Origin: a virus
Taxonomy: Duplodnaviria > Caudoviricetes
Length of the DNA stretch: 64,000 nucleotides
IMG/VR virus record: IMGVR_UViG_3300025437_000009
Direction: 5' to 3' (one strand)
Shown: in pieces, positions 3,757-61,013 of the stretch
Numbering within the stretch: the stretch's first letter is position 1
How the letters are laid out: each line of letters starts with the position of its first letter
Translations under genes and position numbers: made by a program
The notes under the pieces: generated by a model
What the model saw: the letters and a program-made list of their open reading frames with translations, nothing else
Databases searched by the model: none
What the model was told of the DNA's origin: nothing

Positions 3757-3780
3757 AATATAATTCCGTTGTTAGTGTAT

Positions 3781-4053: not shown

Positions 4054-5057
4054 GGGTTAAATGCTAACTTAGCACGTTCTGCTTTAAGTTGCTCAATTCG
4101 TTGTTTGAGCTTTTCTTTATATTCTGCAGGTAATTGTTCTGTAGTAATACGTTGTTTAATTTCGTCAATTAAATTTCCTAAATGCTCGATCTCTCGCATA
4201 GTTAAACGATCAACAGCACTGGGCTCTGTTTCTGCTAAATCAAATGCTTTAAGGCTTTTTTTAATCTGTCCGGGACGCACATCTTTAGTCAAACTCATTG
4301 AATAGCGTGGATCATTGGCCTGTGCTTTACTAGCAACAACACCTACACCCGCGGCTTCACCAACTGGTTCGGGTTTTCCTACCTTTTGTAGCTGGGCTTT
4401 ATTTTTTAACTGTGGTGGTTCTACAGATTTTGCTGGCAACAGTTTATTATCCATAATCTGTTGAGCTTCGTGAGTATAACGTCCGTACAAATCTTTGATT
4501 ATTTGTTGACGTTGAGCATTATCGGCTTTTGCGTATAAATTTCTAATGCTAGTAGCACCAGTAATTTTTTGTCCTAGTATTTCAAATTCTTGTACTTTGA
4601 CAGTTTGAACGTATGCGTGTTTATCTGCACTTTCAACTGAGGTTTGATCATTGGGTAAGGGTTGTAATTTTTTTGGAGTACCGTCTGATTTTGTTCCGCC
4701 ATTGAATAAGCCTGGTTTTTCATCTACGTCTTTTTGGCTTACAGGGAAGATCATAACAGTATGGCTAAGATCATTGATTCCCAGTGCTTTGGCAGCAACA
4801 TCGGGGTTATAGTTGTTTGATAACTGTAGTATGCGATCAGATGGAATTCCCAACAAGTTCATGAAATAAACTCGTTCGGAAAGTGTAAAAGGACTGTCTG
4901 GGAGTTCTACTTTACCGCTGGTGCCAATATAGACATTTTCACGTCCGTATGTACCAACTAGGTTGTTGTAGACTGCAGCATGTCCGCGATGGAAGGGCTG
5001 GAATCTACCACAAAAAATAACAACAACACGCCGTTCGGCTAATTCATTAATAAACAT
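4050..5057 (-). CDS. HxGH nucleotidyltransferase (cytidylyltransferase-like) with C-terminal modules
   Basis: GRFQPFHRGH motif; SPFT..ER and SATSIR-like (GATSIR) motifs. Confidence 0.75.
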   Translation of the reverse strand: MFINELAERRVVVIFCGRFQPFHRGHAAVYNNLVGTYGRENVYIGTSGKVELPDSPFTLSERVYFMNLLGIPSDRILQLSNNYNPDVAAKALGINDLSHTVMIFPVSQKDVDEKPGLFNGGTKSDGTPKKLQPLPNDQTSVESADKHAYVQTVKVQEFEILGQKITGATSIRNLYAKADNAQRQQIIKDLYGRYTHEAQQIMDNKLLPAKSVEPPQLKNKAQLQKVGKPEPVGEAAGVGVVASKAQANDPRYSMSLTKDVRPGQIKKSLKAFDLAETEPSAVDRLTMREIEHLGNLIDEIKQRITTEQLPAEYKEKLKQRIEQLKAERAKLAFNP

Positions 5058-5087
5058 AGTAACAGTTCTCTATTACTATATTTATCT

Positions 5088-5543
5088 TTAAATGTTTTCA
5101 AGCAACCATATGTAAAAGGGTGATTCGACCGGTAAGGTCCACGAGCCGTTCCATCCTAGATCTACACAGTTATCAAGCACAGGCCTGGAGGGATCGTCCC
5201 CAACAAATGTGCTTTTTCTCCACGTTAATTCACCTATATCAATATCGTCAATCTCAACGCTATCAATATGTAATAACATGTCTTTGACAATCACAAAATC
5301 TTCTTTGGTTTCGTCATCTTTGACCACTTGATCATTGGTTTTATTTTCAAATCGAATCGTAAGTTTACAGGGACCTTCATCAACTGAAACATCAAATTCA
5401 ACAAATTCAACTATGCCCGACTCTTGGGAGATAATACCTTCGGAGTATTTTGTGTCATTTACTAAGACAGTATACTGGGGTTTTTTATCCCAGTATACGC
5501 CCGAAAGACCAATTTTAAAATGAAGATTTTCTGTACTAGACAT
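5088..5543 (-). CDS. hypothetical protein (151 aa)
   Basis: intact ORF in operon. Confidence 0.6.
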   Translation of the reverse strand: MSSTENLHFKIGLSGVYWDKKPQYTVLVNDTKYSEGIISQESGIVEFVEFDVSVDEGPCKLTIRFENKTNDQVVKDDETKEDFVIVKDMLLHIDSVEIDDIDIGELTWRKSTFVGDDPSRPVLDNCVDLGWNGSWTLPVESPFYIWLLENI

Positions 5544-5545
5544 TG

Positions 5546-6430
5546 TTATGGTGTTGGTGTTGCTTGTAGTGCTTTTTCCATTTGAGCACCCTGTGCTTTT
5601 AGTGTATCTTCAATGATACCCATGCTACCACGCTGACCGATAGCAATCTTATCTAAGTCACCAGCATATTCGTAATGTCCAACGTGGTTCAACAATACTT
5701 TACTGTGTGCCCAAATTTCGCCACCTAGTTCTTGCCAACGACGGCAGAATAGCCAATCTTCTGACAAATAGTGACCACGTTCGTCGATCTTGCAATCGAA
5801 GATTGAGTACATCATTGGCTCGTACTGCTTACCTAGACCTACATCGTCTACATATTTGCACTCTGGATGTGCAGCAATTAACTTTTCATATACTGAACGT
5901 TTGAATAGTAAGAAGCCTGTGCCCATTGTATCTACTGTAAAGATATCGCCTTGAATCTTAGTCTGTGGCATCAAGTTAATAACATAACTTACAGGTAGGG
6001 CCTTCTTAGGATACAAGCCACCGATGACTTCTTTATCGTAAGCCAACATACTTAGAATTGATTCTGGTTGGAAACGAATATCAGCATCAATAAACATGAA
6101 GTGAGTGGCCTGTGTGTTAGTCATCATCTTAGCCATTAAATTGTTACGAGCACGTGTTACTAATGATTCGTTAACCATTGTGTCTAATGACCAATTTAGA
6201 CCAGCTTGTGCGGCTAGTAATGTAAACCGTAGGAAGCTGGTCATTGTTGGTTCTGAAACCATACCACCATAGCATGGGATACCAATGTGCAAGTGAATTT
6301 TGCTAAAGTCAAACGGTTGACCTTGACCTTGTGGTTGTGCCACTGGAGCAGCGGCTGCTTGTTTTTGTTTTGCGGCTGCTGCTTTGATTAAATTCACAGC
6401 ATCGGCTTGACTGATTTTCTTATCGCTCAT
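5546..6430 (-). CDS. GT-A fold (GT2-like) glycosyltransferase
   Basis: IGIPCYGG, FMFIDADI (DxD), LSEDWLFCRRW motifs. Confidence 0.7.
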   Translation of the reverse strand: MSDKKISQADAVNLIKAAAAKQKQAAAAPVAQPQGQGQPFDFSKIHLHIGIPCYGGMVSEPTMTSFLRFTLLAAQAGLNWSLDTMVNESLVTRARNNLMAKMMTNTQATHFMFIDADIRFQPESILSMLAYDKEVIGGLYPKKALPVSYVINLMPQTKIQGDIFTVDTMGTGFLLFKRSVYEKLIAAHPECKYVDDVGLGKQYEPMMYSIFDCKIDERGHYLSEDWLFCRRWQELGGEIWAHSKVLLNHVGHYEYAGDLDKIAIGQRGSMGIIEDTLKAQGAQMEKALQATPTP

Positions 6431-7370: not shown

Positions 7371-9624
7371 TAGCATCAATCATAGGAGTTGCTGGGATAA
7401 ATTGACCCAGAGCAGTAAATTCAAAAGCATCATCCCGCCAATCGACTTCAATTACGGTGTGTGCAGGAATAGTGTCGAACAAAATCTTTTTACTTAGTGG
7501 TACTTTAATCAAATCGTTAATCTTACGACCTAAAGGACGAGCACCCATTTTACTATCGTAGCCAACTTCAGCTAAATGATCTGTTGCTGCTTCAGTTAAC
7601 CGAATCTTCAGTGATTTTTCACTTAGTAGATCATTCATTTCGTTAATAAACTTAGCAACAATCTTCTTAATACTGATAGTATCTAACTTATTAAACTTAC
7701 AAACACCATCTAAACGATTGCGGAACTCTGGTTTAAAGAAGTCTTTAACTGCTTTGTCATCTTCACCAGACTTTTGTAATTCACGACCAAAGCCAATGTT
7801 ATTACGTTCGTTATCTGCAGCACCAAGGTTACTGGTAAGAATAATAATGGCGTTACGTGCATCTGCTTTTTTACCGTTACTACTTGTAATAGTACCTTCG
7901 TCCATTAACTGTAGTAAGATATTCATTACATCCGGGTGTGCTTTTTCGACTTCGTCAAATAGAACAACACAGTTAGGATTCTTTTCAATGTCGCTGATTA
8001 ATAATCCGCCACCAAGATTTGAGTCATCATATCCAACATAACCTGGAGGAGCACCAATTAATTTAGCGGCTGCATGCTTTTCTTGATATTCACTCATATC
8101 GTAACGTAGCATCTTCATGCCCATACCTTCGGCCAACAATTTAGCAAGTTCTGTTTTACCAGTACCAGTTGGTCCCAGGAATAAGAAATTACCAATTGGT
8201 TTGTTCATTGATTTTAGTCCAGCACGTGCTACATAAATTTTATCCAGGACTGTATCTACTACAGAATCTTGTCCGTATAGTTTAGTTTTGATTGTTTCTT
8301 CCAGCCCCACAAGACTTTTAGTTGATTCAGATCCAATTTGTTCTGCGGGAATCTTAGTAAACTTACTGATAATGTCAACGATATGACTCTTACGCACAGT
8401 CCATGCTATGGCATTAATTTTTAATTTAGCTGCGGCTGTGTCAATTAAGTCAATGGCTTTGTCTGGTAACTTCTTGTCTGGTTGATAACGAACACTCAAA
8501 TCAACAGCGGCATCAATAGCTTCATCACTGATTGACCCTTCGTGGAATGCTTCAAAATATTCTTTAAGGCCATGTAAGATTTCTTTAGCTACTGCGGGAG
8601 TTGGTTCCTCGATGGTCATACGTACAAAGCGACGCATAAGGGCACGATCTTTTTCAAATGATTGTGTGTATTCTTCCCAAGTGGTTGATGCAATAACTTT
8701 AATTTGTCCTTTGGCCAGTGCAGGTTTAATCATATTAGCAAAGTCTACTGAACTGTTACTAGCTGAACCAGCTCCACGCATTTGATGTGCTTCATCAATA
8801 AACAAGATGCACTTGCCTTTGGCCTGTAGTGCACCAATGACATCTTTAAACTTTTCTTCAAACTCACCACGATATTTAGATCCAGCAAGCAATGACCCAA
8901 TATCTAAATTCCATACTGTGTAGTCGCGTAAGTATTCGGGAACACTACCCTCAACAATATTGCGGGCAAGTCCTTCGGCAATAGCTGTTTTACCCACACC
9001 GGCATCACCAACCATTAAGATATTACACTTGTTACGTTTGGCCAAGACCTGTGCTATTTCATCTAGTTCAAATTCACGTCCGACTACTGGATCAATTTTA
9101 CCGTCTTTGGCCTGCACATTTAAATTTTCACAGTATTCACGTAGAATATCATCGGCACGTGCATTGGCCGGCAAACGTTTGGCTTTACTTTCTACATAAT
9201 TTTGATTATAGAATTCAACCAATTGACTGCGTTCTAATCCATATTTGATAAAGAAATAACTTGCGTGGCTATTTGCTTCGCTGGCTATACTTAAAAAGAT
9301 ATCAATGACTTGTACATGATTACGTCCACTAAACAGGACCTGTGTAAATGCACGATTAAAAATTCTTTCAAGACTGTGAGTTTTCTTTGGAATATGATCT
9401 GCGTCAGGGGAAACTAGATATGTTTGTTTATTTAAATAATCCTCGAGGTCTTTAACTAGAGCATCAGCATCTATACCATAGGCCACAAGTAAATCATTAA
9501 ATGGTTTAAATGTTACAAGTCCGTGTGTTAAGTGTTCTATGGTAACATATTCGTGGTTATAATTTTTTGCTAGATCAGTTGCACTAGCAATAATAACTTC
9601 AATTTCTGGATTGTGTTGGATCAT
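7336..9624 (-). CDS. clpA: ATP-dependent Clp protease ATP-binding subunit ClpA
   Basis: Clp N-domain, two Walker A motifs (GDAGVGKT, GPTGTGKT), GSKYRGEFEE, LIGAPPGYVG, MGARPL; no ClpB middle domain. Confidence 0.92.
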   Translation of the reverse strand: MIQHNPEIEVIIASATDLAKNYNHEYVTIEHLTHGLVTFKPFNDLLVAYGIDADALVKDLEDYLNKQTYLVSPDADHIPKKTHSLERIFNRAFTQVLFSGRNHVQVIDIFLSIASEANSHASYFFIKYGLERSQLVEFYNQNYVESKAKRLPANARADDILREYCENLNVQAKDGKIDPVVGREFELDEIAQVLAKRNKCNILMVGDAGVGKTAIAEGLARNIVEGSVPEYLRDYTVWNLDIGSLLAGSKYRGEFEEKFKDVIGALQAKGKCILFIDEAHQMRGAGSASNSSVDFANMIKPALAKGQIKVIASTTWEEYTQSFEKDRALMRRFVRMTIEEPTPAVAKEILHGLKEYFEAFHEGSISDEAIDAAVDLSVRYQPDKKLPDKAIDLIDTAAAKLKINAIAWTVRKSHIVDIISKFTKIPAEQIGSESTKSLVGLEETIKTKLYGQDSVVDTVLDKIYVARAGLKSMNKPIGNFLFLGPTGTGKTELAKLLAEGMGMKMLRYDMSEYQEKHAAAKLIGAPPGYVGYDDSNLGGGLLISDIEKNPNCVVLFDEVEKAHPDVMNILLQLMDEGTITSSNGKKADARNAIIILTSNLGAADNERNNIGFGRELQKSGEDDKAVKDFFKPEFRNRLDGVCKFNKLDTISIKKIVAKFINEMNDLLSEKSLKIRLTEAATDHLAEVGYDSKMGARPLGRKINDLIKVPLSKKILFDTIPAHTVIEVDWRDDAFEFTALGQFIPATPMIDANGYIKMDSVQS

Positions 9625-10714: not shown

Positions 10715-10725
10715 TTTTAAATTCC

Positions 10726-11400
10726 TTACATTAAAGGTTGTGTTGTTTGAGGTACAACTTTTTGTCCGCTTGCGTTTAAAGTTGGGGTTGTTGGTGTGGT
10801 TGAACCGAAGCCACCTGTAGTCGGTGTAGTTGCGGTACTACCAAATCCACCTGCACTAGCGCCGCCAAATGAACCTGTGGCTGGTGTTGAACCAAAACCA
10901 CCTGCGGATGCGCCACCAAAACCACCACTGCTTGCTCCGCCAAAGCTACCTGAGCTTGCGCCGCCGAAGCCCCCGGTTGATTGGCCGCCAAATCCACCAC
11001 CCATACCTGAGTTCATACCTCCGCCAAATCCACCACCCATACCGCCACCCATACCACCACCCATACCACCGGCCATGCCAGCTGGTACACCACTCATGTT
11101 AGTAGTGTTAACAGAAATTTGTTCTGTAGCTGTTGGATTAGCTGCTGTGCCTGCTAGTTTTTCTTGTGTTCGACCAAATGCTGAAATACCTAATACAGCA
11201 CCCATAGCAATGTGAAATAAGCCAGCACCTTGAAGTGTTAACGGGTTCCACTGTGTAATAGGTACATGGTTCATACCTTGCCATAAGGCCCATAGTACTG
11301 GAAACACCATCATGTCTGCGACGCATATTAACATATACATCCAGCCCATCATTGGACGCCATAGAGTCTGCATCCAATCTTCTCTTTTATTCTTTGACAT
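10726..11400 (-). CDS. 3TM holin-like protein (gene-transfer-agent holin type) with Gly-rich tail
   Basis: WRPMMGWMY...WNPLTLQG.GLFHIAMGAVLGISAFGRTQEK; SD and late motif. Confidence 0.75.
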   Translation of the reverse strand: MSKNKREDWMQTLWRPMMGWMYMLICVADMMVFPVLWALWQGMNHVPITQWNPLTLQGAGLFHIAMGAVLGISAFGRTQEKLAGTAANPTATEQISVNTTNMSGVPAGMAGGMGGGMGGGMGGGFGGGMNSGMGGGFGGQSTGGFGGASSGSFGGASSGGFGGASAGGFGSTPATGSFGGASAGGFGSTATTPTTGGFGSTTPTTPTLNASGQKVVPQTTQPLM

Positions 11401-11434
11401 ACCTAGCTCCTTATAATTGATTTTATAAGTGTAT

Positions 11435-11632
11435 TTATGCGTAAGTGTTAGTATTTTGTGGGGTTAGCTCGTGTGTTACTTGATCTTGGGCATTGTATAC
11501 TTTAACAGAATGTGCATCAGTTTGATCTTTAGCAAATCCTAATGCTTCTTCAAGTTCCTCAAATAAATGATCTGTAAAATGTAGGATGCCATTGATCCAA
11601 CTGTGTTTTCTTACTTTGTGTGACATACTCAA
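11435..11632 (-). CDS. small hypothetical protein, paralogue of 11636..11833
   Basis: H.VR.H.W.NG...S.KV....TYA shared pattern. Confidence 0.65.
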   Translation of the reverse strand: MSMSHKVRKHSWINGILHFTDHLFEELEEALGFAKDQTDAHSVKVYNAQDQVTHELTPQNTNTYA

Positions 11633-11635
11633 TCC

Positions 11636-11833
11636 TTAAGCGTATGTGTCAGGCGTTTGTCCTGATAAATTGTGTGTAATATTATGTTCGTGATCAAAAA
11701 CTTTAATACTATCTGCCATTTCGACGCTGTTGGCAAATGTCAGTGCTTCGGCTTCTGAACCAAAAAATGCATCTTTGACTTCTAAACGACCATTGCGCCA
11801 GTGATGTGTTCTCACTCTGTGTACTCGGCTCAT
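11636..11833 (-). CDS. small hypothetical protein, paralogue of 11435..11632
   Basis: shared pattern; tandem arrangement. Confidence 0.65.
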   Translation of the reverse strand: MSRVHRVRTHHWRNGRLEVKDAFFGSEAEALTFANSVEMADSIKVFDHEHNITHNLSGQTPDTYA

Positions 11834-11834
11834 A

Positions 11835-12893
11835 TTATTTTTCCTTAAATTGCGTAGTCCATATACGCTTTGTTTTATCTGTGTATTTAGTTAAATTACG
11901 CTGATTAAACCATACGTTAGTTTGTGGACGTCGATAAGTTCTTAGTAGGACGTTGGCTATTTGACTGCTTTCTGTGGGGTCGGCCCAACAAAAACGTGTT
12001 GCCCAAGGAATTTCATTGCAACCTACAATAGGTACACCTTGACTAATCAAATCTGCTGACACAATGTTAAACGTTTCTGAAAAATTACATTGCATACCGA
12101 TATCCATACTAGCACAGGTTTTTAAGAATTCTTCACGTGGAGCCCATTCGTGCCCAATTAGCTGATGTCCAGTGTCGGCCAATTGCTGGAAAAATCCACG
12201 TAGATTATGTAGCACAGGACTGCCCTGCATTTCAACACGGCCCGCATTGATATGAAAACGCAACTGTTTACCAATTTTGTTAGCAAACTTTAGTGCCGCT
12301 ACTGCTTGCACCATATGATTTTTTAAGGGACGTACTGCACCAAAGCACGCAATGTCTACCCAATACTTGTTGCGATCAAATTCTTTAGTTACATAGTCTT
12401 GTGGATAGTAATTTGGAAGATAGAAAATACGACTATCGGTTTCTGTTTGACCCCATCCTTTTTTAGTACTCAGGTATGTTCTAACTTCGTCAAGCATACG
12501 TGGAGCATTTACACCAATATCAATCTGTGGGAAATTGATATAATCCCCTAACCAGTCCATGGCCATACCTTCACCAGCCATAAAGGGCATTTCTGAATGC
12601 AGTCGAATGATCCATCGAACACCAGGATGTAGTTTGGTTAAGACACTAAACTTACTAGGAACTACCCATAGTGCTTCAACAATAACATGTGTTGGTTGAT
12701 GCTTGGTTACTAGCCTATCAATACAGTTATTATCAATAGCAACTTCAATAGTAGTGTCAATACCTAGGTCATTCAACATTTCAACCATAAAGTTGGCAGA
12801 ATTAAATAGGCCAGTTGACAGGCCTAGGGGAGAATGTTTGACAGGATTGAAGTCTTCTCGTCTCTTGAGAATAAACAGTATTTTTGTTTTCAT
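11835..12893 (-). CDS. GT-B fold (GT4-like) glycosyltransferase
   Basis: FGAVRPLKN and SETFNIVSADLISQGVPIV (ExF..E-like) motifs. Confidence 0.65.
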   Translation of the reverse strand: MKTKILFILKRREDFNPVKHSPLGLSTGLFNSANFMVEMLNDLGIDTTIEVAIDNNCIDRLVTKHQPTHVIVEALWVVPSKFSVLTKLHPGVRWIIRLHSEMPFMAGEGMAMDWLGDYINFPQIDIGVNAPRMLDEVRTYLSTKKGWGQTETDSRIFYLPNYYPQDYVTKEFDRNKYWVDIACFGAVRPLKNHMVQAVAALKFANKIGKQLRFHINAGRVEMQGSPVLHNLRGFFQQLADTGHQLIGHEWAPREEFLKTCASMDIGMQCNFSETFNIVSADLISQGVPIVGCNEIPWATRFCWADPTESSQIANVLLRTYRRPQTNVWFNQRNLTKYTDKTKRIWTTQFKEK

Positions 12894-54254: not shown

Positions 54255-54290
54255 AACGTAATCCTTTATGATATAGTATTATTTATCATA

Positions 54291-54314
54291 CTAAACCCGC
54301 CGAAGCGGGTTTAG
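54291..54314 (-). terminator. hairpin ending the tmRNA
   Basis: CTAAACCCGC-TTCG-GCGGGTTTAG. Confidence 0.75.
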
Positions 54315-54560
54315 GTTATTTTCTGTTACGAGGTATAACTACCCTAGGCGCTGTTAGGCTGCCAATGCGAACTGTTCGTCGTTTGCGTTTACGTTATTTG
54401 CTTTTTACGTCTACTCCTGACGTGTTGCCTTTGTCGCTATCTCACCATGTCGAAACCAAATACGGGCCCACCGAAATATACTACACAATACACTTCGGTG
54501 GACCCGCCGGGGGTCGAACCCGGGTCCACAATGCCTTTGCTAGAAAGGAATTACAACAAT
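54315..54560 (-). ncRNA. ssrA: circularly permuted two-piece tmRNA, tag (A)ANDEQFALAA
   Basis: T-arm CCGGGTTCGACCCCCGG plus CGGGTCC-A-CC (54497..54523) precedes the 5' end GGGCCCG (54469); G3-U70 pair; tag ORF 54354..54386; outer ends approximate. Confidence 0.9.
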
Positions 54561-54691
54561 TACTTGACTGCTTCTGTGTGCTTGTGCTTCAAGCTCTTCT
54601 TTAGCAGTTTAAACCAAAATTTCTTAACTTTATCAAGGTTATGCTCGATTTCGGCCTTGTAAAGTTTACGAACTAATTTTTCAACTTTCAT
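54560..54691 (-). CDS. small basic protein (43 aa), absent from ORF track
   Basis: GGAGG SD; TTGACC-17-TATAAT at 54711..54739. Confidence 0.65.
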   Translation of the reverse strand: MKVEKLVRKLYKAEIEHNLDKVKKFWFKLLKKSLKHKHTEAVK

Positions 54692-54722: not shown

Positions 54723-55526
54723 TTATTGAATTTGGTCAACGGTATTTGCGTGTTTTGGACGAGTAACAAACTTTTGTCGAACTGATTCAAATAATTCATA
54801 TTCTTCTGGAGTGATAACCGCCGAATCAATTTCTTTGCGAACAGCCTGATGAAATTCAAATAGTTGCTGGATGTCTGCTTCGTACTTAAAGTATTTGGTA
54901 ATGTGTTTAGTATCATAAGCATCCATAATTAAATGAAATCTATCTTCATTTGAATCATTGCGTATTTGATGCCAATCATTGACCCATACCATATACGCAT
55001 TTCCCGGTTCCATATATAGGTCGGTTCCGTGCATAATAAATTTGCACTTTTCGTTAGTTATCAAAGGTATATGAAGTCTGGCCATATATTCGTGATCGCC
55101 AGAGTCTTTGTGTACTAAACTCTTTGCGCCAGCTTTTAAACAGGTTACACGAGCACGTCTCGGTGTTAGGCCAAATGCTTCTATTTGATCAATGACTTTT
55201 GCGAACTCGCCAACACAGGCCTGAGTTGGTTTATCATGTTCGGTACTCATAGCAATACCAAAAAACTTTAGTGTTTTATAGTTATTAGCGTTCTTAGGAA
55301 AAAATATTTCTAATTCTTTGCCTTCATCGTTTTGAAAATAATCCCAACCGTCACGCCAATCGCCAGTACGAGAAGTAACGGACCAACCACCAAAGCCATG
55401 GTATGCAGGTGTTTCGTATTCTTCGCCTTGAATAACCTGTTGTCCCAATGGAAATATATGTTCCTTAAGATCCTGTACTAACTTACTATGATCGAATGTG
55501 ACCATATCTAATTTTTCATAAAACAT
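54723..55526 (-). CDS. Asp/Asn beta-hydroxylase-like 2OG-Fe(II) oxygenase
   Basis: R.R...L..G....HKD, RLHIPLITN, WH...N.S.EDR.HLIMD. Confidence 0.8.
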   Translation of the reverse strand: MFYEKLDMVTFDHSKLVQDLKEHIFPLGQQVIQGEEYETPAYHGFGGWSVTSRTGDWRDGWDYFQNDEGKELEIFFPKNANNYKTLKFFGIAMSTEHDKPTQACVGEFAKVIDQIEAFGLTPRRARVTCLKAGAKSLVHKDSGDHEYMARLHIPLITNEKCKFIMHGTDLYMEPGNAYMVWVNDWHQIRNDSNEDRFHLIMDAYDTKHITKYFKYEADIQQLFEFHQAVRKEIDSAVITPEEYELFESVRQKFVTRPKHANTVDQIQ

Positions 55527-56058
55527 TTTGAATATCCTTGATCATTTCTTTTACTTCATCAAAACTGTATTTGTTAGTTGCCAATTGTAACACTTCTCGT
55601 ACCGGTTTGTCAAAGTCATCGATTGACACTTCGTGTATTACCTTGTTGTCTATTAGATAAATGTCATACGGATCAGCATTAAATGTTCCCAACAGAGTCA
55701 ACGATTCTTTAGAGTATATATGCCCTTCTCCGTGATCAGCATACTCAATCCCTCCAATACCCAAGTTGTTGGCATACATGTTGGTAGAATATCCGGCTGG
55801 TTGTACGTAGCAATTAAGTCCAGCAGTTTCTACTATGTCAGTGTGCGGCGGTATGTTATCATTTATAACTAATAAACTAGAATAAAAATCACCGTGTACT
55901 TCCTTGGGTAATAAATTATACAATGTTTCCAATATTGTACTTGCTACATCATAGTATCTAATACCATAGAATTTGTCTGCTGGTCTGGTAGCAAACTCTA
56001 TTTGCTTTTTTAAAACAGTTATAAGACCACTAGGTGCTTGACCAACGTACTTAAACAT
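55516..56058 (-). CDS. 2OG-Fe(II) oxygenase-like protein
   Basis: IPPHTD...IHEV (HxD...H). Confidence 0.6.
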   Translation of the reverse strand: MFKYVGQAPSGLITVLKKQIEFATRPADKFYGIRYYDVASTILETLYNLLPKEVHGDFYSSLLVINDNIPPHTDIVETAGLNCYVQPAGYSTNMYANNLGIGGIEYADHGEGHIYSKESLTLLGTFNADPYDIYLIDNKVIHEVSIDDFDKPVREVLQLATNKYSFDEVKEMIKDIQNVL

Positions 56059-56599
56059 CTAACAGTCCGTAATCATTGAGCATAGCGTAAACTTCTGCAT
56101 AGGTCATGTCAGTACTGAGATTAAGAACAAATCTAGGATTGTCTGCTGATAATTCATCTACACTATGTATTGCTGTGGTGTCTAGTAGGTAAACATCGCC
56201 TGGATGCGCTATAAACTGCTCTTCGAAGTTTAAGTTAGTTGGCTTCATACTACATGCACACTCGCCGGCAGTAAACTTTTCAAAGTTACAACCGTTGCAG
56301 TCTTTGGCTAACTCTTTGTAGTCACCAGAATAAAATCTAGTAGTGGCGTTATTTTCTGAAAGATAAATGTTGATCTTACACTGGATGCCTTGGTCTCTGT
56401 GCGGCACAATGCGACCACGCATGGCCAAATGTGTTAGAAAGAATCTCTGCTGATACTCTGGCGGTATAATGATACTGCTGTCGAGATCTACATATGAATA
56501 GGTGGATAAAGTACCGGCGCAGATATATTGAGTACCAAGTAGTTTAAAGTTTTCATATTTGGCAGGGTCAATTGATTTTAAACGAGCATGGTACTTCAT
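56051..56599 (-). CDS. 2OG-Fe(II) oxygenase-like protein
   Basis: IVPHRD...GDVYLLDT..IHSV...R. Confidence 0.6.
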   Translation of the reverse strand: MKYHARLKSIDPAKYENFKLLGTQYICAGTLSTYSYVDLDSSIIIPPEYQQRFFLTHLAMRGRIVPHRDQGIQCKINIYLSENNATTRFYSGDYKELAKDCNGCNFEKFTAGECACSMKPTNLNFEEQFIAHPGDVYLLDTTAIHSVDELSADNPRFVLNLSTDMTYAEVYAMLNDYGLLDV

Positions 56600-57249
56600 A
56601 GTAATCCTTTAATTTTGAGCATAGAATCTACCCAACTTGTTATAACTAATTTATCAGTACTGTCGTCGGTTAGTTTGTAATTAAAATCAGTAGACAAACT
56701 AACACGTAGAGAATTGCTTTTATTTGCCTTAACTCCGTGTAATACATAGGATGGAAAGAAAATTAGGTCTCCAGACACGGGCTGTATATGTTTAATTTGA
56801 GTCTTGTGTTCTCCCACTAACCCAGTATCTAAATAATAAAGTTCTCCGCCTTCTGCGGGAGTAGTTATATAGTAAGTAGAGGCTATAGTCGAATCTGGAT
56901 GTCCGTGAAATTCGATAACTTCGTCAGGTTCTTTTATATTTGGCCAACTCGATAAGGGTGTGAATATGGCCGTATGTGTGTCGGGTAGATAGTCGTTTAC
57001 TGTAAAAGTTATTACATCTACCTTAGTATCTAGTAATTCTTTTAATCGTGGGCTGCTATCAGTATAATCTAATAGACTACTACCAACATTTTTATCTATG
57101 CCCAGTTTAATGTTGCTGGCTATATTGTACAATTCTACCAACAACTCTTGATTAAAGTTATCGTTAAATTTGGTTTTGTAAGTCCAAACAGGACTTTCCC
57201 ATAGTGTTTGTTTTACACTACTTTCGTATATGCCTTTTTCATACGACAT
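56596..57249 (-). CDS. putative 2OG-Fe(II) oxygenase (TIGR02466-like)
   Basis: H.HP.S.I...YY, GDL.FFPS...H.V, R.SLS. Confidence 0.8.
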   Translation of the reverse strand: MSYEKGIYESSVKQTLWESPVWTYKTKFNDNFNQELLVELYNIASNIKLGIDKNVGSSLLDYTDSSPRLKELLDTKVDVITFTVNDYLPDTHTAIFTPLSSWPNIKEPDEVIEFHGHPDSTIASTYYITTPAEGGELYYLDTGLVGEHKTQIKHIQPVSGDLIFFPSYVLHGVKANKSNSLRVSLSTDFNYKLTDDSTDKLVITSWVDSMLKIKGLL

Positions 57250-57252
57250 GAT

Positions 57253-57666
57253 TTAGTTGGTGGTTGGGATTATCCCGTTTTCTTGTTGAAATTTAATCAA
57301 TGGTGCAAAGTCTAGACCTTGTTTTACAGCCAGGTCTTCTGGGAATGGGCGATTGTTTGCGGTCAACCACTCTTTGTATTCTGCTACGATCCAGCTAGGT
57401 GTATAGTCTATGCCCTCATGATGATCGGCTAAGGCTTCATAAAATTCATTACCGTAGCGTACAAAATTTGTAAAAGGTGCGCCCTTTAAAAAGAATAGTG
57501 TATCCAAAATTGGAGAATGATCAGTAATCATTTTAAAAAATTGATCTTTTTCTTCCGCTGATAGGTTATGTATGATTCCGTTTACTTCTGTATCTAAAAA
57601 ATATTTTATACAGTCGTTATATTGGTCTGGTGTTACTTCTTCAAAAATTTTATTCACGTTAGGCAT
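57253..57666 (-). CDS. hypothetical protein (137 aa)
   Basis: coupled ORF within the operon. Confidence 0.6.
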   Translation of the reverse strand: MPNVNKIFEEVTPDQYNDCIKYFLDTEVNGIIHNLSAEEKDQFFKMITDHSPILDTLFFLKGAPFTNFVRYGNEFYEALADHHEGIDYTPSWIVAEYKEWLTANNRPFPEDLAVKQGLDFAPLIKFQQENGIIPTTN

Positions 57667-58656
57667 TTATGCTTCCTTTAACAATTTTGATTTAACACGG
57701 CCGAATAAATTTTTAACATTGAGTATTGCCTTGCCAGTGTAGTAACTGAAATACAATAAAGATAAAATAGTCCAAGAAGTAAAGAAACCGTGTTTTCTAT
57801 ATTTGCGCGGCACTCTTGGAATACTACCAAAGAATTTACACAAAGGACGACCGATGGACATTAAGATACGACCATAGTCGTTGTCTTTGTTTAGAGTACC
57901 CATAATATAGGCCATATGCTCTGACCATGGTTGGCCAACACGATATAGTATATCTGTGGCAAATTCTTTTTGTTTGAGCTTACGTTCTTCTTTGTCTAAA
58001 ATCCAAGGCATAAAGTCTGGACCATGACCATCCATCCATTGAGTACAAATCTTAGCCCACTTGATGTAGCCACGATAAATTGTTTTATCTTTTTTACGTA
58101 GAACTCGACCGTATGCTTGGTCTGCTGACCAAACTTCTTGGCTCATCATTCCCATGTCGTAGAATTTAGCACAAACAATCTTAGAGCAGTTGCAAGCACA
58201 GTTACAGTTGTAGCTTACCAGGCCAGTATTGCAATTATAACTTACTGCACCACCGCAGTTACAATTATATGTACAGGCACAATTACAGTTGGACTGTAAC
58301 CACGCTTGACCGTCGCAGTTAGCACAGTTTACATTAGTTGAACAGTTAGCACAGTTCGAACAATCACTAGGACCAGCAATAACACAATTAGTACACTGAA
58401 TATTACCACAGTTACAGTTGTTGGTACAGTTGCCATTAGGGCCGCCCGATGGCGAACAGTTGCCGTTGTTACAGTTGCCTTGGTTGTTATTTTGAAAATA
58501 AGTTAAACCATAGAATCCCTGTAGGTGTGGGGTGCCGGGACGTTGCCCTGGCGTGATTAAATTGTTAAGAAAACTTAGACTAGCGGAATACCCGGGACGT
58601 CCAGTTTCTGAAAGAATTTGGCTAACTGATATAGGGCCGGATGATGGTAGTGTCAT
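57667..58656 (-). CDS. Asn-Cys-repeat protein: virion-type N-terminus, 22-Cys core, KIVC domain, C-terminal TM
   Basis: MTLPSSGPIS start; Cys-rich residues 62-157; own TAAATA 7 nt upstream. Confidence 0.75.
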   Translation of the reverse strand: MTLPSSGPISVSQILSETGRPGYSASLSFLNNLITPGQRPGTPHLQGFYGLTYFQNNNQGNCNNGNCSPSGGPNGNCTNNCNCGNIQCTNCVIAGPSDCSNCANCSTNVNCANCDGQAWLQSNCNCACTYNCNCGGAVSYNCNTGLVSYNCNCACNCSKIVCAKFYDMGMMSQEVWSADQAYGRVLRKKDKTIYRGYIKWAKICTQWMDGHGPDFMPWILDKEERKLKQKEFATDILYRVGQPWSEHMAYIMGTLNKDNDYGRILMSIGRPLCKFFGSIPRVPRKYRKHGFFTSWTILSLLYFSYYTGKAILNVKNLFGRVKSKLLKEA

Positions 58657-59375
58657 AGTATAGTATTTATCTTGATCAAATTAAGAAACTCTAGTATTTT
58701 TATATAGCACCATCCTAGGTCAATTTCAAACCAACGTTTAGCAAAATTTGCACAGGCCGGAAACTCGTGATGATTATTGTGCAGTTCTTCACCACAGCCT
58801 AGTAGTCCCAAAGGTAAAACATTTGTACTGGTATCGGGCCTATCATAGTTCCTGTAACCAATTTTGTGCCCAAATCCAGTGATAGTGGCATTTACAAACA
58901 GACTCACGGAAAACATGTGCACCAGCCAGGCCACAATACCTAGCCAGCCAAATAAACCAATGTTTATTGTTAGTAGTATTAACAGGCCTAATTTTGTATG
59001 GCAGTAGACATTCTTTTCTAACCAATTCTCTTTAAAATCACGACTGAAGTGTGCGGTTTCCCAATCGGTATTCCAATATTGGTATTCTCTAAAAAAGTTA
59101 GGTATTAAACAATGTCCAGTGACCCGCCAAAAACCAGATAATAACGGACTATGCGGATCACCGTGTACATCGGTAAACATATGATGTATTCGATGTTGGG
59201 CAATAAATGGCTTGGGATAGATTCCCTCGGTTATCCAGAACAAAAAACGGAATACATGCTCGACTATAGGATACTTGATTGTATACTGCCGATGTATCAA
59301 GTATCTATGCAGATATATCGATGTTAATACTATACCAAGATGTGCTGTACATATAGTATATACAACAACGTCCAT
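58653..59375 (-). CDS. membrane fatty-acid desaturase (delta-9 type)
   Basis: His boxes HRYLIH, HRIHH, HNNHH; GDPHSP; EIDLGW. Confidence 0.88.
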   Translation of the reverse strand: MDVVVYTICTAHLGIVLTSIYLHRYLIHRQYTIKYPIVEHVFRFLFWITEGIYPKPFIAQHRIHHMFTDVHGDPHSPLLSGFWRVTGHCLIPNFFREYQYWNTDWETAHFSRDFKENWLEKNVYCHTKLGLLILLTINIGLFGWLGIVAWLVHMFSVSLFVNATITGFGHKIGYRNYDRPDTSTNVLPLGLLGCGEELHNNHHEFPACANFAKRWFEIDLGWCYIKILEFLNLIKINTIL

Positions 59376-60823
59376 TATGCGCTTTCTACGCGGCTTTTCC
59401 CATAAACTTCAACATCATCGATGGTACCAATTTTTTCTGCTACCACTTTAATAGGAATAATCTTCTTAACGGCCTTTTCCTTGTGTTCGTAGATAGTGCC
59501 AAAAATATCCTGGCGTTCTAATGGTAGTGCATCATTTTTAATCAGTGTAGGAATATAACCCGTTATTTTTTCTATAGCTAGGGCAAAAAGAGCCACATTG
59601 TCTGAATAAGCATTGGCACAAGATATTTCCCAAAACTTATTGTCTAAGAACATACAAGCACCCTTACAGACATGCAACACTGGGCAACTGGGGCATTCTG
59701 CACGATTTGACCAATGTGTTGAAGTTTTGATTGCTACATTATCATAGTCATCTAATGTACCGCCTAGGTGACTTTCACCGTTTTTGCTGGTTTCTACTGC
59801 TGAGACGTTTTGACAGGTTATCACATTGCCACGCAGGTCCACAGCGATTGCACGTTGATCATCCATGCCACATTTTTGTCCTAGGGTATCTGCTTCTTGG
59901 TGTGTTAGTACACTTTTAATAAATCCGTCAATCTTACCTAATTGTCCGGTAAATCCAATACGACCTTGGGTTGAAAAAATATCCGCAAATGCAGTACGTC
60001 TAAAATCAAAATGTTCTTCTAGGGTTTGTAGACTGTTGCTCATACCCTCTTCGTCATAAGCATCAACAATAGAACCTTCACCTAACTGTATGTCGGGATT
60101 TCCTGTTAGTTCTACAAACCAATCATAAATTGCCTTACGGCTTTTATTTTTAGCATGCAACATGGGGTTGAAACTGATGCCTTTTTTCAATCGACTCATC
60201 ATGCGATAAAAACCTAATAGTCTTTTCTTTTGGTCTGGATCATCAAACGGATCTGGTCCGCGAACTGACTGCCCAGGACCGTCATGTGAGATACTAACTG
60301 AAAAATTTAGTGCCATTAACCAATCAATCATTTCGTCGGTTAGAATACTACCGTTGGTAATAACAGAAAATAATGGTTTACGTTTCCAGTCTTTAAATCT
60401 TTCTAATAGTGCTTCAGCTAGGGGTTTGAAAGTTTTCCAATAGACAAATGGCTCACCTCCCCAAAACTCTACCTTAAGTCCATCTTCTTCACTGAACTCT
60501 AATACATCCAATTTGGCAAGAAAAGCATCAATATCTTTCTTACTAGTTTCTGGAGCACGCTCTACAAATTTTTGTGAACAGTAATCACAGGTGTAGTTAC
60601 AACTCAGTCCAAGTTGAATTTTTAATAGTTGAATGCCGCGGGATTTTTTAAGAGGACGGTCGCGGTCGAAAGGTATATAAGGTTCTAGTCCCTCTATCTT
60701 GTATGAACCCTTTGGATATTCGTACAAGTTACCTTGTTCGTCTTTGAGTGTATTGGCTTGATTGTCGTAATAAAAAATACGTTTATCGTCGGTGCTGCGT
60801 TCAGCATGAATTTCAAATAGCAT
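59375..60823 (-). CDS. radical SAM/SPASM-domain enzyme (peptide-maturase type)
   Basis: CNYTCDYC; FWGGEP; TNG; S.SHDG; SPASM CG...G.V..C...C..C.....C.G.C....C. Confidence 0.92.
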   Translation of the reverse strand: MLFEIHAERSTDDKRIFYYDNQANTLKDEQGNLYEYPKGSYKIEGLEPYIPFDRDRPLKKSRGIQLLKIQLGLSCNYTCDYCSQKFVERAPETSKKDIDAFLAKLDVLEFSEEDGLKVEFWGGEPFVYWKTFKPLAEALLERFKDWKRKPLFSVITNGSILTDEMIDWLMALNFSVSISHDGPGQSVRGPDPFDDPDQKKRLLGFYRMMSRLKKGISFNPMLHAKNKSRKAIYDWFVELTGNPDIQLGEGSIVDAYDEEGMSNSLQTLEEHFDFRRTAFADIFSTQGRIGFTGQLGKIDGFIKSVLTHQEADTLGQKCGMDDQRAIAVDLRGNVITCQNVSAVETSKNGESHLGGTLDDYDNVAIKTSTHWSNRAECPSCPVLHVCKGACMFLDNKFWEISCANAYSDNVALFALAIEKITGYIPTLIKNDALPLERQDIFGTIYEHKEKAVKKIIPIKVVAEKIGTIDDVEVYGKSRVESA

Positions 60824-60843
60824 CGGGATCCTTGGGATTATTG

Positions 60844-60930
60844 TTATTGATCAGTATCAAGCCAATCTTTGACTGTGATTATTGCATAGATCAAAAGTGC
60901 AGAAAAGATTATAAAGGCTAGATATGTCAT
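60844..60930 (-). CDS. 28-aa single-TM peptide, absent from ORF track
   Basis: MTYLAFIIFSALLIYAIITVKDWLDTDQ; ATG 5 nt after TAAATA. Confidence 0.45.
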   Translation of the reverse strand: MTYLAFIIFSALLIYAIITVKDWLDTDQ

Positions 60931-60935
60931 AACAA

Positions 60936-60975
60936 TATTTATTAATAAGTGCTAACCAGTAACACTTATTAATAA
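60936..60975 (-). promoter_or_regulatory. late promoter overlapped by a 13-bp perfect inverted repeat
   Basis: TTATTAATAAGTG-11-CACTTATTAATAA; TAAATA at 60936..60941. Confidence 0.6.
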
Positions 60976-61013
60976 ATGGGGTCTAATACGCTTCCCAGCG
61001 AAGCCCCATGTTA

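Follow-up and report, generated by a model that had tools for sequence, protein, structure and literature searches.

A conserved mobile phage cassette pairs a radical SAM/SPASM enzyme and 2-oxoglutarate oxygenases with an asparagine-cysteine repeat protein that they may cross-link and hydroxylate

In the QhpD/QhpC system, a radical S-adenosylmethionine (rSAM) enzyme with a SPASM domain modifies a Cys-containing protein that is retained in a larger assembly, namely a subunit of quinohemoprotein amine dehydrogenase that is cross-linked by thioethers, and an oxygenase then tailors the product. A comparable arrangement, in which a full-SPASM rSAM enzyme is encoded beside a ribosomal product that is rich in Cys and conserved at its N-terminus, is found in ranthipeptide and NxxC systems (PapB/freyrasin, CteB/SCIFF and NxxcB), while in CXXX-repeat systems an rSAM/SPASM enzyme (TIGR04115) lies beside a Cys-repeat protein (TIGR04114 targets). 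NxxcB, itself an rSAM enzyme, links Cys to the beta-carbon of Asn as a thioether (PMC9389541). Here we describe a viral locus that combines these themes, found on a large phage of freshwater metagenomes (IMG/VR record IMGVR_UViG_3300025437_000009; 'the window' hereafter is the whole stretch of 64,000 nucleotides (nt) that was analysed). It encodes an rSAM/SPASM enzyme, a protein with a core of Asn-Cys (NC) repeats and several 2-oxoglutarate (2OG) oxygenases, one of which is of the AspH type. The reading that we favour, by a little over an even chance, is that the enzymes of a conserved mobile phage cassette cross-link and hydroxylate an NC protein that resembles a fibre or adhesin. Literature searches found no description of the cassette or of rSAM modification of phage fibres, in line with an earlier reading made from the sequence only (hereafter the sequence-only reading), which knew of no described phage system of this kind. 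A pelagimyophage paper mentions rSAM cassettes and AspH only as phage genes (PMC7029224), and the rSAM 'maturase' named in a cyanophage paper is unrelated.

The locus consists of nine open reading frames (ORFs) on the minus strand (60930-54723), with almost no intergenic space. The sequence-only reading had described one tightly coupled minus-strand unit with this gene content, and its ORFs, coordinates and families have all been borne out. In gene order, with lengths in amino acids (aa), these are:

60844..60930, minus strand: 28-aa hydrophobic peptide, accessory and lineage-specific
59375..60823, minus strand: rSAM/SPASM enzyme, 482 aa, core component (PF04055, TIGR04085, invariant Cys)
58653..59375, minus strand: fatty-acid-desaturase-family di-iron membrane enzyme, 240 aa, accessory (PF00487, 39.3 bits, above the family cut-off of 29.7)
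57667..58656, minus strand: NC protein, 329 aa, core component and presumed substrate (residues 1-55, N-terminus; 56-160, NC core; 160-329, helical domain)
57253..57666, minus strand: 137-aa all-helical protein, accessory, detected in 41/74 NC-protein loci (AlphaFold2 (AF2) model with a predicted local distance difference test (pLDDT) score of 85)
56596..57249, minus strand: 2OG-Fe(II) oxygenase, 217 aa, frequent accessory (PF13759/TIGR02466 type, 58.4 bits, cut-off 27)
56051..56599, minus strand: small 2OG-oxygenase-like protein, 182 aa, core family, paralogue 1 (motif, hhalign and ESM Atlas neighbours)
55516..56058, minus strand: small 2OG-oxygenase-like protein, 180 aa, core family, paralogue 2 (same family alignment as the 182-aa protein)
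54723..55526, minus strand: AspH-type 2OG hydroxylase, 267 aa, core component (PF05118, 45.9 bits, above the family cut-off of 22.6)

The 28-aa ORF is separated from the rSAM gene by 20 nt. At the next two junctions the reading frames overlap by 1 and 4 nt, the NC-protein gene directly abuts that of the 137-aa protein (0 nt), 3 nt then intervene, and the last three junctions overlap by 4, 8 and 11 nt. Within the nine-gene unit (54723-60930), the minus strand contains no site resembling a terminator that exceeds 5 bp.

How does this locus compare with the systems above? Its Asn-Cys pairs recall the Cys-Asn beta-carbon link made by NxxcB (PMC9389541). However, it differs from ranthipeptide/NxxC systems in that (i) the phage rSAM reaches 80 bits where the family requires 340, and no RiPP recognition element (RRE; RiPP stands for ribosomally synthesised and post-translationally modified peptide) was found, (ii) the presumed substrate is protein-sized (130-420 aa), built on NC dipeptide repeats and optionally followed by folded C-terminal domains and (iii) the system is viral, with two to four 2OG hydroxylases and no protease or exporter. 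The likeness to QhpD/QhpC, which on the phage side is a proposal, stops at a substrate that is unrelated and far richer in Cys, and at the absence of dehydrogenase subunits, no dehydrogenase gene of the kind expected in a qhp operon being present nearby. Whereas CXXX-repeat systems also place an rSAM/SPASM enzyme beside a Cys-repeat protein, the phage repeat is Asn-Cys, and the cassette adds AspH, 2OG oxygenases and a desaturase. Lastly, as for human AspH and its EGF-like domains, a PF05118 hydroxylase is encoded together with a Cys-rich and Asn-rich putative target, but the phage enzyme has the usual HxD...H triad and the NC core lacks an EGF consensus. The cassette thus probably represents SPASM-type maturation of a Cys-rich ribosomal product in a viral, protein-scale setting where a structural role is likely, and the combination is probably new.

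The evidence that carries this interpretation is, above all, the conservation of the gene set. Among NC-protein contigs with enough flanking sequence to be informative (n = 74, viral), the rSAM gene lies directly upstream of the NC gene in 74/74, sometimes with the desaturase gene between them. Approached from the other side, some 43 IMG/VR loci with an rSAM 62-77% identical to that of the window almost all have an adjacent NC protein, with oxygenases and AspH downstream, while in four loci (L035, L039, L041 and L042) a short NC protein is found directly upstream of the rSAM instead. These cassette loci amount to about 37 rSAM clusters at 90% identity. The outcome that the sequence-only reading had named as fatal to itself, i.e. 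rSAM homologues usually lacking an NC neighbour, is not what is seen, as close homologues almost always have one and the reverse is invariable. The core set comprises the rSAM, the NC protein, at least one small oxygenase and AspH (the last two are present in nearly every complete cassette), and the accessory set the 217-aa oxygenase, the 137-aa protein, the desaturase and the 28-aa peptide. Gene order within the cassette varies among loci, which points to selection on the gene set rather than to frozen synteny, and the genes that precede the cassette differ as well (tail fibre, terminase, PhoH, exonuclease or small zinc-ribbon-like proteins), so that the cassette resembles a mobile unit whose genes are held together by selection. 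Its linkage is therefore not due to chance, and it is very probable that rSAM and NC protein are functionally connected. At least 2,889 rSAM relatives and several hundred NC proteins, all without names, are present in metagenomes. The NC family numbers 475 proteins at E <= 0.001 among scored candidates, on contigs of up to 267 kb, and a scan of genome collections returned only three short contigs from metagenome-assembled genomes and no bona fide cellular genome, these three contigs being probably phage DNA binned by mistake. The collection of isolates that was searched contains no cultured phage with the cassette.

The NC protein itself has no match in Pfam, PHROG or NCBIfam scans (the latter including the TIGR04114 target model), and its core has none among PDB sequences. 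This core (residues 56-160) contains 22 Cys, i.e. a Cys density of 21%, and 28 Asn, with CxC and CxxC spacings, and the two residues are paired far more often than composition predicts, with 18 Asn-Cys dipeptides versus 5.9 +/- 1.9 (maximum 14) over 20,000 shuffles. The conserved core positions in the family are mostly Cys or Asn, with nine invariant and five nearly invariant Cys, mostly in NC pairs. The core spans about 75-160 aa across the family, and the proteins 260-420 aa in the 120 best matches, because the number of NC repeats varies. It is preceded by some 55 highly conserved residues (MTLPxSGxI..sD...E.G...L.FLN...), and a search of 1.84 billion representatives with this N-terminus gave 21 matches, each ahead of an NC core. 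Likewise, a hidden Markov model (HMM) of the N-terminus, run over the collected loci, matched 123 ORFs, of which 123 have an NC core. A role for this segment as a general phage virion adaptor is accordingly unsupported, as it is seen only with NC cores.

From its sequence, the rSAM enzyme is a SPASM peptide or protein maturase by type that belongs to no characterised family. It scores above the cut-offs of both PF04055 (34.6 versus 29.5 bits) and TIGR04085 (32.2 versus 27 bits), which places it in the radical SAM superfamily with a SPASM domain, and in an alignment of 48 sequences covering 43-76% identity both the CxxxCxxC motif (C75, C79 and C82) and the SPASM Cys (C318, C337, C377, C380, C386, C390 and C402) are invariant. 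It matches phrog_1802 at 3e-63, and the solved chains nearest to it by sequence are 8vpo_A and CteB (5wgg). Its best NCBIfam match is PapB (NF047865; 80.2 bits over residues 66-392, far under the cut-off of 340), followed by QhpD (TIGR03906; 69.6 bits, cut-off 453, core only) and then by the geopeptide, Nif11, CcpM and SCIFF maturases, again over the core only. Few NCBIfam models (PapB, DynA, anSME, Clo7bot and TIGR04083) align through the SPASM region, those that come close to full length (PapB, DynA and anSME) all being maturases of Cys peptides or of proteins, and the CXXX-repeat maturase TIGR04115 is not among the best 25 of the 45 matches. The enzyme has an N-terminal extension of only about 65 residues. 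A predicted complex of the rSAM with residues 1-110 of the NC protein scored 0.17, which speaks neither for nor against binding. We also considered a formylglycine-forming role of the anSME type and discarded it, as the ORF lists and scans of this analysis contained no sulfatase and no CxPxR-type motif is apparent in the translated NC core.

The sequence-only reading counted four 2OG oxygenases, one of the AspH type. All four stand, but two of them, the 182- and 180-aa proteins, are products of a single recent local duplication, and many relatives carry a single copy. These two have no Pfam match and were recognised as 2OG-Fe(II) oxygenases by other means: (i) an invariant HxD...H...R set in their family (H67, D69, H145 and R156), (ii) a motif-to-motif alignment of that family with the 217-aa family (hhalign E 2.6e-4, probability 42%) and (iii) ESM Atlas structural neighbours, every named one of which, for the 182-aa protein, is a 2OG or cupin oxygenase (template modelling (TM) score 0.57-0.66). 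The 217-aa family, also with the residues expected of a 2OG-Fe(II) oxygenase, has invariant H115/H117, H171 and R182. In the AspH-type protein, which has no match among PDB sequences, H139, D141 and H186 are invariant. Going by the name of its family, this enzyme would hydroxylate Asn or Asp residues of the NC core.

Clues to what the product might be come from the C-terminus of the NC protein, which is swappable, being helical in the window, a Peptidase_S74 domain in some relatives and missing in others. Peptidase_S74 domains are self-cleaving assembly chaperones of trimeric tail fibres and tailspikes. As in endosialidases and tail-fibre proteins, such a domain (PF13884, cut-off 22 bits) is found right after the NC core in L035 (29.1 bits) and L039 (22.6 bits), where it begins at the Ser that follows ...CACFW, the very point at which short NC forms end. 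These stand-alone forms of 113-161 aa (including that of L042) consist of the N-terminus and core only and end in ...CACACW or ...CTNCW. The window's protein differs in that a Pfam scan finds no PF13884 in it, and the place that Peptidase_S74 occupies in these relatives is taken by a helical domain (residues 160-329, positions 57667-58176), modelled by AF2 with a pLDDT above 90. This domain has no convincing solved counterpart, the best Z of 6.1 being within noise for helical folds. It also ends a 616-aa protein of Synechococcus phage SynMITS9220M01 (L075, 4669-6519) that is encoded directly after a 'fiber protein', as well as a DUF4815 phage protein. The same domain is shared by the ends of cellular proteins of 127-943 aa.

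Tail fibres also recur among the neighbours. A tail-fibre gene recognised by HMM directly precedes the cassette in at least five sequence-distinct loci (L009, L012, L016, L112 and L150), and about 12 further upstream proteins share the C-terminal end motif of the L009 and L012 proteins. Moreover, a distant rSAM clade (42-49% identity) lies inside tail-fibre modules in 29 loci (L001, L002 and L046-L074), including Ralstonia phage RSP15 (gp045, L001) and Achromobacter phage JWF (gp030, L002). Its members adjoin fibre proteins and, in some cases, 2OG oxygenases and tandem small Cys/Asn proteins, and in 23/29 loci a conserved Cys-poor partner of 153-309 aa without a Pfam match is encoded directly upstream. 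The guess of the sequence-only reading that the NC protein is a fibre or adhesin has thus gained support from the S74 fusions, the C-terminal domain shared with fibre-module proteins, the tail-fibre neighbours and the presence of distant rSAM enzymes in fibre modules.

Two loci of the distant clade contain three tandem small paralogues upstream of the rSAM. In L046 (6017-7096, preceded by a 500-aa ORF at 4490-5992) they measure 113-119 aa, have 6 Cys and are about 12% Asn, and in L073 (3793-4602) they measure 86-87 aa and have 3 Cys. These may be another type of substrate.

We propose the following scheme, each part of which has its own likelihood. The NC protein would be the substrate of the rSAM, which is probable, with its N-terminus of about 55 aa serving for recognition or attachment and its core being the part that gets modified. 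By analogy with PapB, QhpD and NxxcB, the rSAM would join the sulfur of core Cys to a nearby side-chain or backbone carbon, and thioether staples like those of ranthipeptides, NxxC products or QhpC would result, a chemistry to which we give slightly less than an even chance. The AspH-type enzyme and the small 2OG oxygenases could hydroxylate the same core, for which Asn and Asp are the obvious candidates, and the desaturase-family enzyme and the 137-aa protein would be optional tailoring or helper parts. The product would more likely be built into the virus, as a fibre, the tip of a fibre or an adhesin, than be released as a diffusible peptide, and its C-terminal domain would be an exchangeable assembly module; taken by itself, a virion role for the NC protein is evenly balanced. 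A more specific version is tentative and clearly less probable than the general one. It holds that, as a substitute for disulfides during assembly in the reducing cytoplasm, the rSAM and hydroxylases build a covalently stapled Asn-Cys 'ladder' that serves a fibre or adhesin as its shaft or its receptor-binding tip, while the C-terminal module guides assembly and is then removed.

Several observations weigh against this scheme. The NC core is modelled by AF2 with a pLDDT of only about 30, so a fibre-like fold is without support from the model (a low-confidence ESM Atlas model of residues 11-157 gives a weak lead to the Gp38 fibre adhesin, with a TM score of 0.42), and the C-terminal helix is too weakly hydrophobic to be a clear transmembrane anchor (19-residue Kyte-Doolittle maximum 0.96). 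In the window, the cassette is flanked by DNA-metabolism and small unknown genes, outside any tail module. The rSAM scores far under the cut-offs of all characterised maturase families in NCBIfam, and no RRE-like domain was found either in its N-terminal extension or, by AF2 and Foldseek, in the 137-aa protein. The neighbours of the distant-clade rSAM are Cys-poor, so the reaction that this rSAM family first catalysed need not have been the cross-linking of Cys. Finally, the stand-alone NC forms of 113-161 aa resemble oversized RiPP precursors.

That last point leads to the rival explanation that survives best, which we nevertheless hold to be improbable, namely that the cassette is a true phage RiPP system in which the N-terminus is a leader and the NC core is freed as a cross-linked effector that is not part of the virion and has an antimicrobial, anti-defence, signalling or metal-chelating role. 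The arrangement typical of such systems, with a variable core behind a conserved leader and next to a modifying enzyme, is indeed found here in the N-terminus, the variable-length core and the strict adjacency of the rSAM. The location of the window's cassette outside the structural module would also fit, as would an N-terminus that is family-specific rather than a general virion adaptor. Tailoring enzymes are numerous, and variant cassettes add yet another, in the order S74-bearing short NC protein, rSAM, 217-aa unknown, PF13759 oxygenase and a flavin Trp-halogenase-family enzyme (PF04820, 312 bits, in L035 at 10722-11876; look-alike ORFs are found in L039 at 10668-end and, by sequence similarity only, in L041 at 8122-9279). 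However, family scans of the loci compared found no protease, transporter or RRE among the cassette genes, and a core of 75-160 aa with variable repeats is far above the usual size of a RiPP core. Fusions of NC proteins to the S74 trimeric-fibre chaperone and to a C-terminal domain common to fibre-module proteins, together with frequent tail-fibre neighbours, also argue for a structural product over a freed effector.

Somewhat less probable still is that the NC protein is a metal or Fe-S partner, which stores metal in the manner of metallothionein, scaffolds clusters or carries electrons, and that the substrate of the enzymes lies elsewhere, e.g. a tail fibre, a lipid or a metabolite. Its Cys density with CxC and CxxC spacings would suit such a role, rSAM relatives elsewhere adjoin Cys-poor proteins, and a lipid target would be compatible with both the desaturase-family enzyme and the AspH family, which also includes lipid hydroxylases. 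Yet, the desaturase is missing from over half of the cassettes, the strict Asn-Cys pairing (about three times the shuffled expectation) is no known metal-site signature, and a family-specific N-terminus, variable repeats and swappable fibre-type C-terminal domains are unexpected for a cofactor carrier. As for the possibility that these are auxiliary genes, unrelated to one another, that ended up side by side where one phage genome is variable, single 2OG oxygenase or AspH-type genes are common in phages of aquatic habitats (PMC7029224), but rSAM/NC-protein co-occurrence in all informative contigs, despite different flanks and with overlapping reading frames, effectively refutes it.

If cross-linking and hydroxylation of the NC protein are confirmed, the implications would be that (i) viruses apply RiPP-type radical chemistry to their own protein-sized products, and do so at large scale, (ii) phage biology includes a new kind of covalent stabilisation or receptor-binding surface, (iii) enzymology gains a new SPASM enzyme along with partner hydroxylases and a natural substrate of highly repetitive sequence and (iv) a substrate can be assigned to some of the orphan AspH/2OG oxygenase genes of aquatic phages. 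Should the stapled ladder prove real, virus particles would have their first example of a radical cross-link installed by an enzyme, and RiPP-type chemistry would gain a new class that acts at protein scale on NC dipeptides. The swaps between S74 and helical domains offer a direct handle on how the product is assembled.

Among the accessory parts, the desaturase-family enzyme has His boxes at H23, H61 and H199 (HX4H, HX2HH and HX2HH) and transmembrane-like segments, and its 231 bits against NF049918 (the DesA equivalog, cut-off 400) place it outside that family. It is present in 30/74 NC-protein loci, at a position that varies (after the rSAM or before AspH). The 137-aa protein has no match in Pfam, PHROG or NCBIfam, and its AF2 model, whose fold is not RRE-like, has no Foldseek match in PDB or AFDB and only low scores in the Atlas. 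The 28-aa peptide, which the sequence-only reading had included in the unit, does exist as an ORF but is not part of the conserved cassette, peptides resembling it being found upstream of the rSAM only in the closest relatives (L005, L017, L086, L116 and L143).

The source phage gave no megablast match for the region among 50,697 phage records. Sequencing runs that contain this DNA come from fresh water, and none of them is an RNA run. Outside the protein-coding genes, three features were recorded:

60936..60943, minus strand: late-promoter-like box AATAAATA of putative function, with ATAAATA at 60936-60942, ending 5 nt before the start of the 28-aa ORF
58664..58670, minus strand: second ATAAATA box GATAAATA, 7 nt before the NC-protein start, within the 3' end of the desaturase gene
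54289-54606, minus strand: transfer-messenger RNA (tmRNA) gene (Rfam beta_tmRNA, 186.9 bits, gathering score 84; the permuted-tmRNA model matches too)

The tmRNA, whose tag peptide according to ARAGORN is ANDEQFALAA, lies just downstream of the cassette, and its betaproteobacterial type suggests a betaproteobacterial host. A sigma-70-like element (TTGACC-17-TATAAT, 54739-54711) overlaps the end of the AspH gene. The cassette had been called a late operon, and boxes are indeed present before starts, but this label relies on a short motif. ATAAATA is not enriched overall in the window (23 observed versus 25.7 expected), although 20/23 copies are on the minus (coding) strand and many lie within about 30 nt of start codons (e.g. 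at 3778, 5079, 9630, 12915, 17108, 36396 and 36999), and it is this strand bias and proximity to starts that make 'late promoter' plausible. The motif is thus suggestive, at most, of T4-like late promoters with very short leaders. On the minus strand, between the stop codon of an upstream 108-aa gene and the late-type box (60975-61010), there are two short inverted repeats, ATGGGG...CCCCAT and then AATAAGTG...CACTTATT, which could be a terminator or a regulatory hairpin at the operon boundary.

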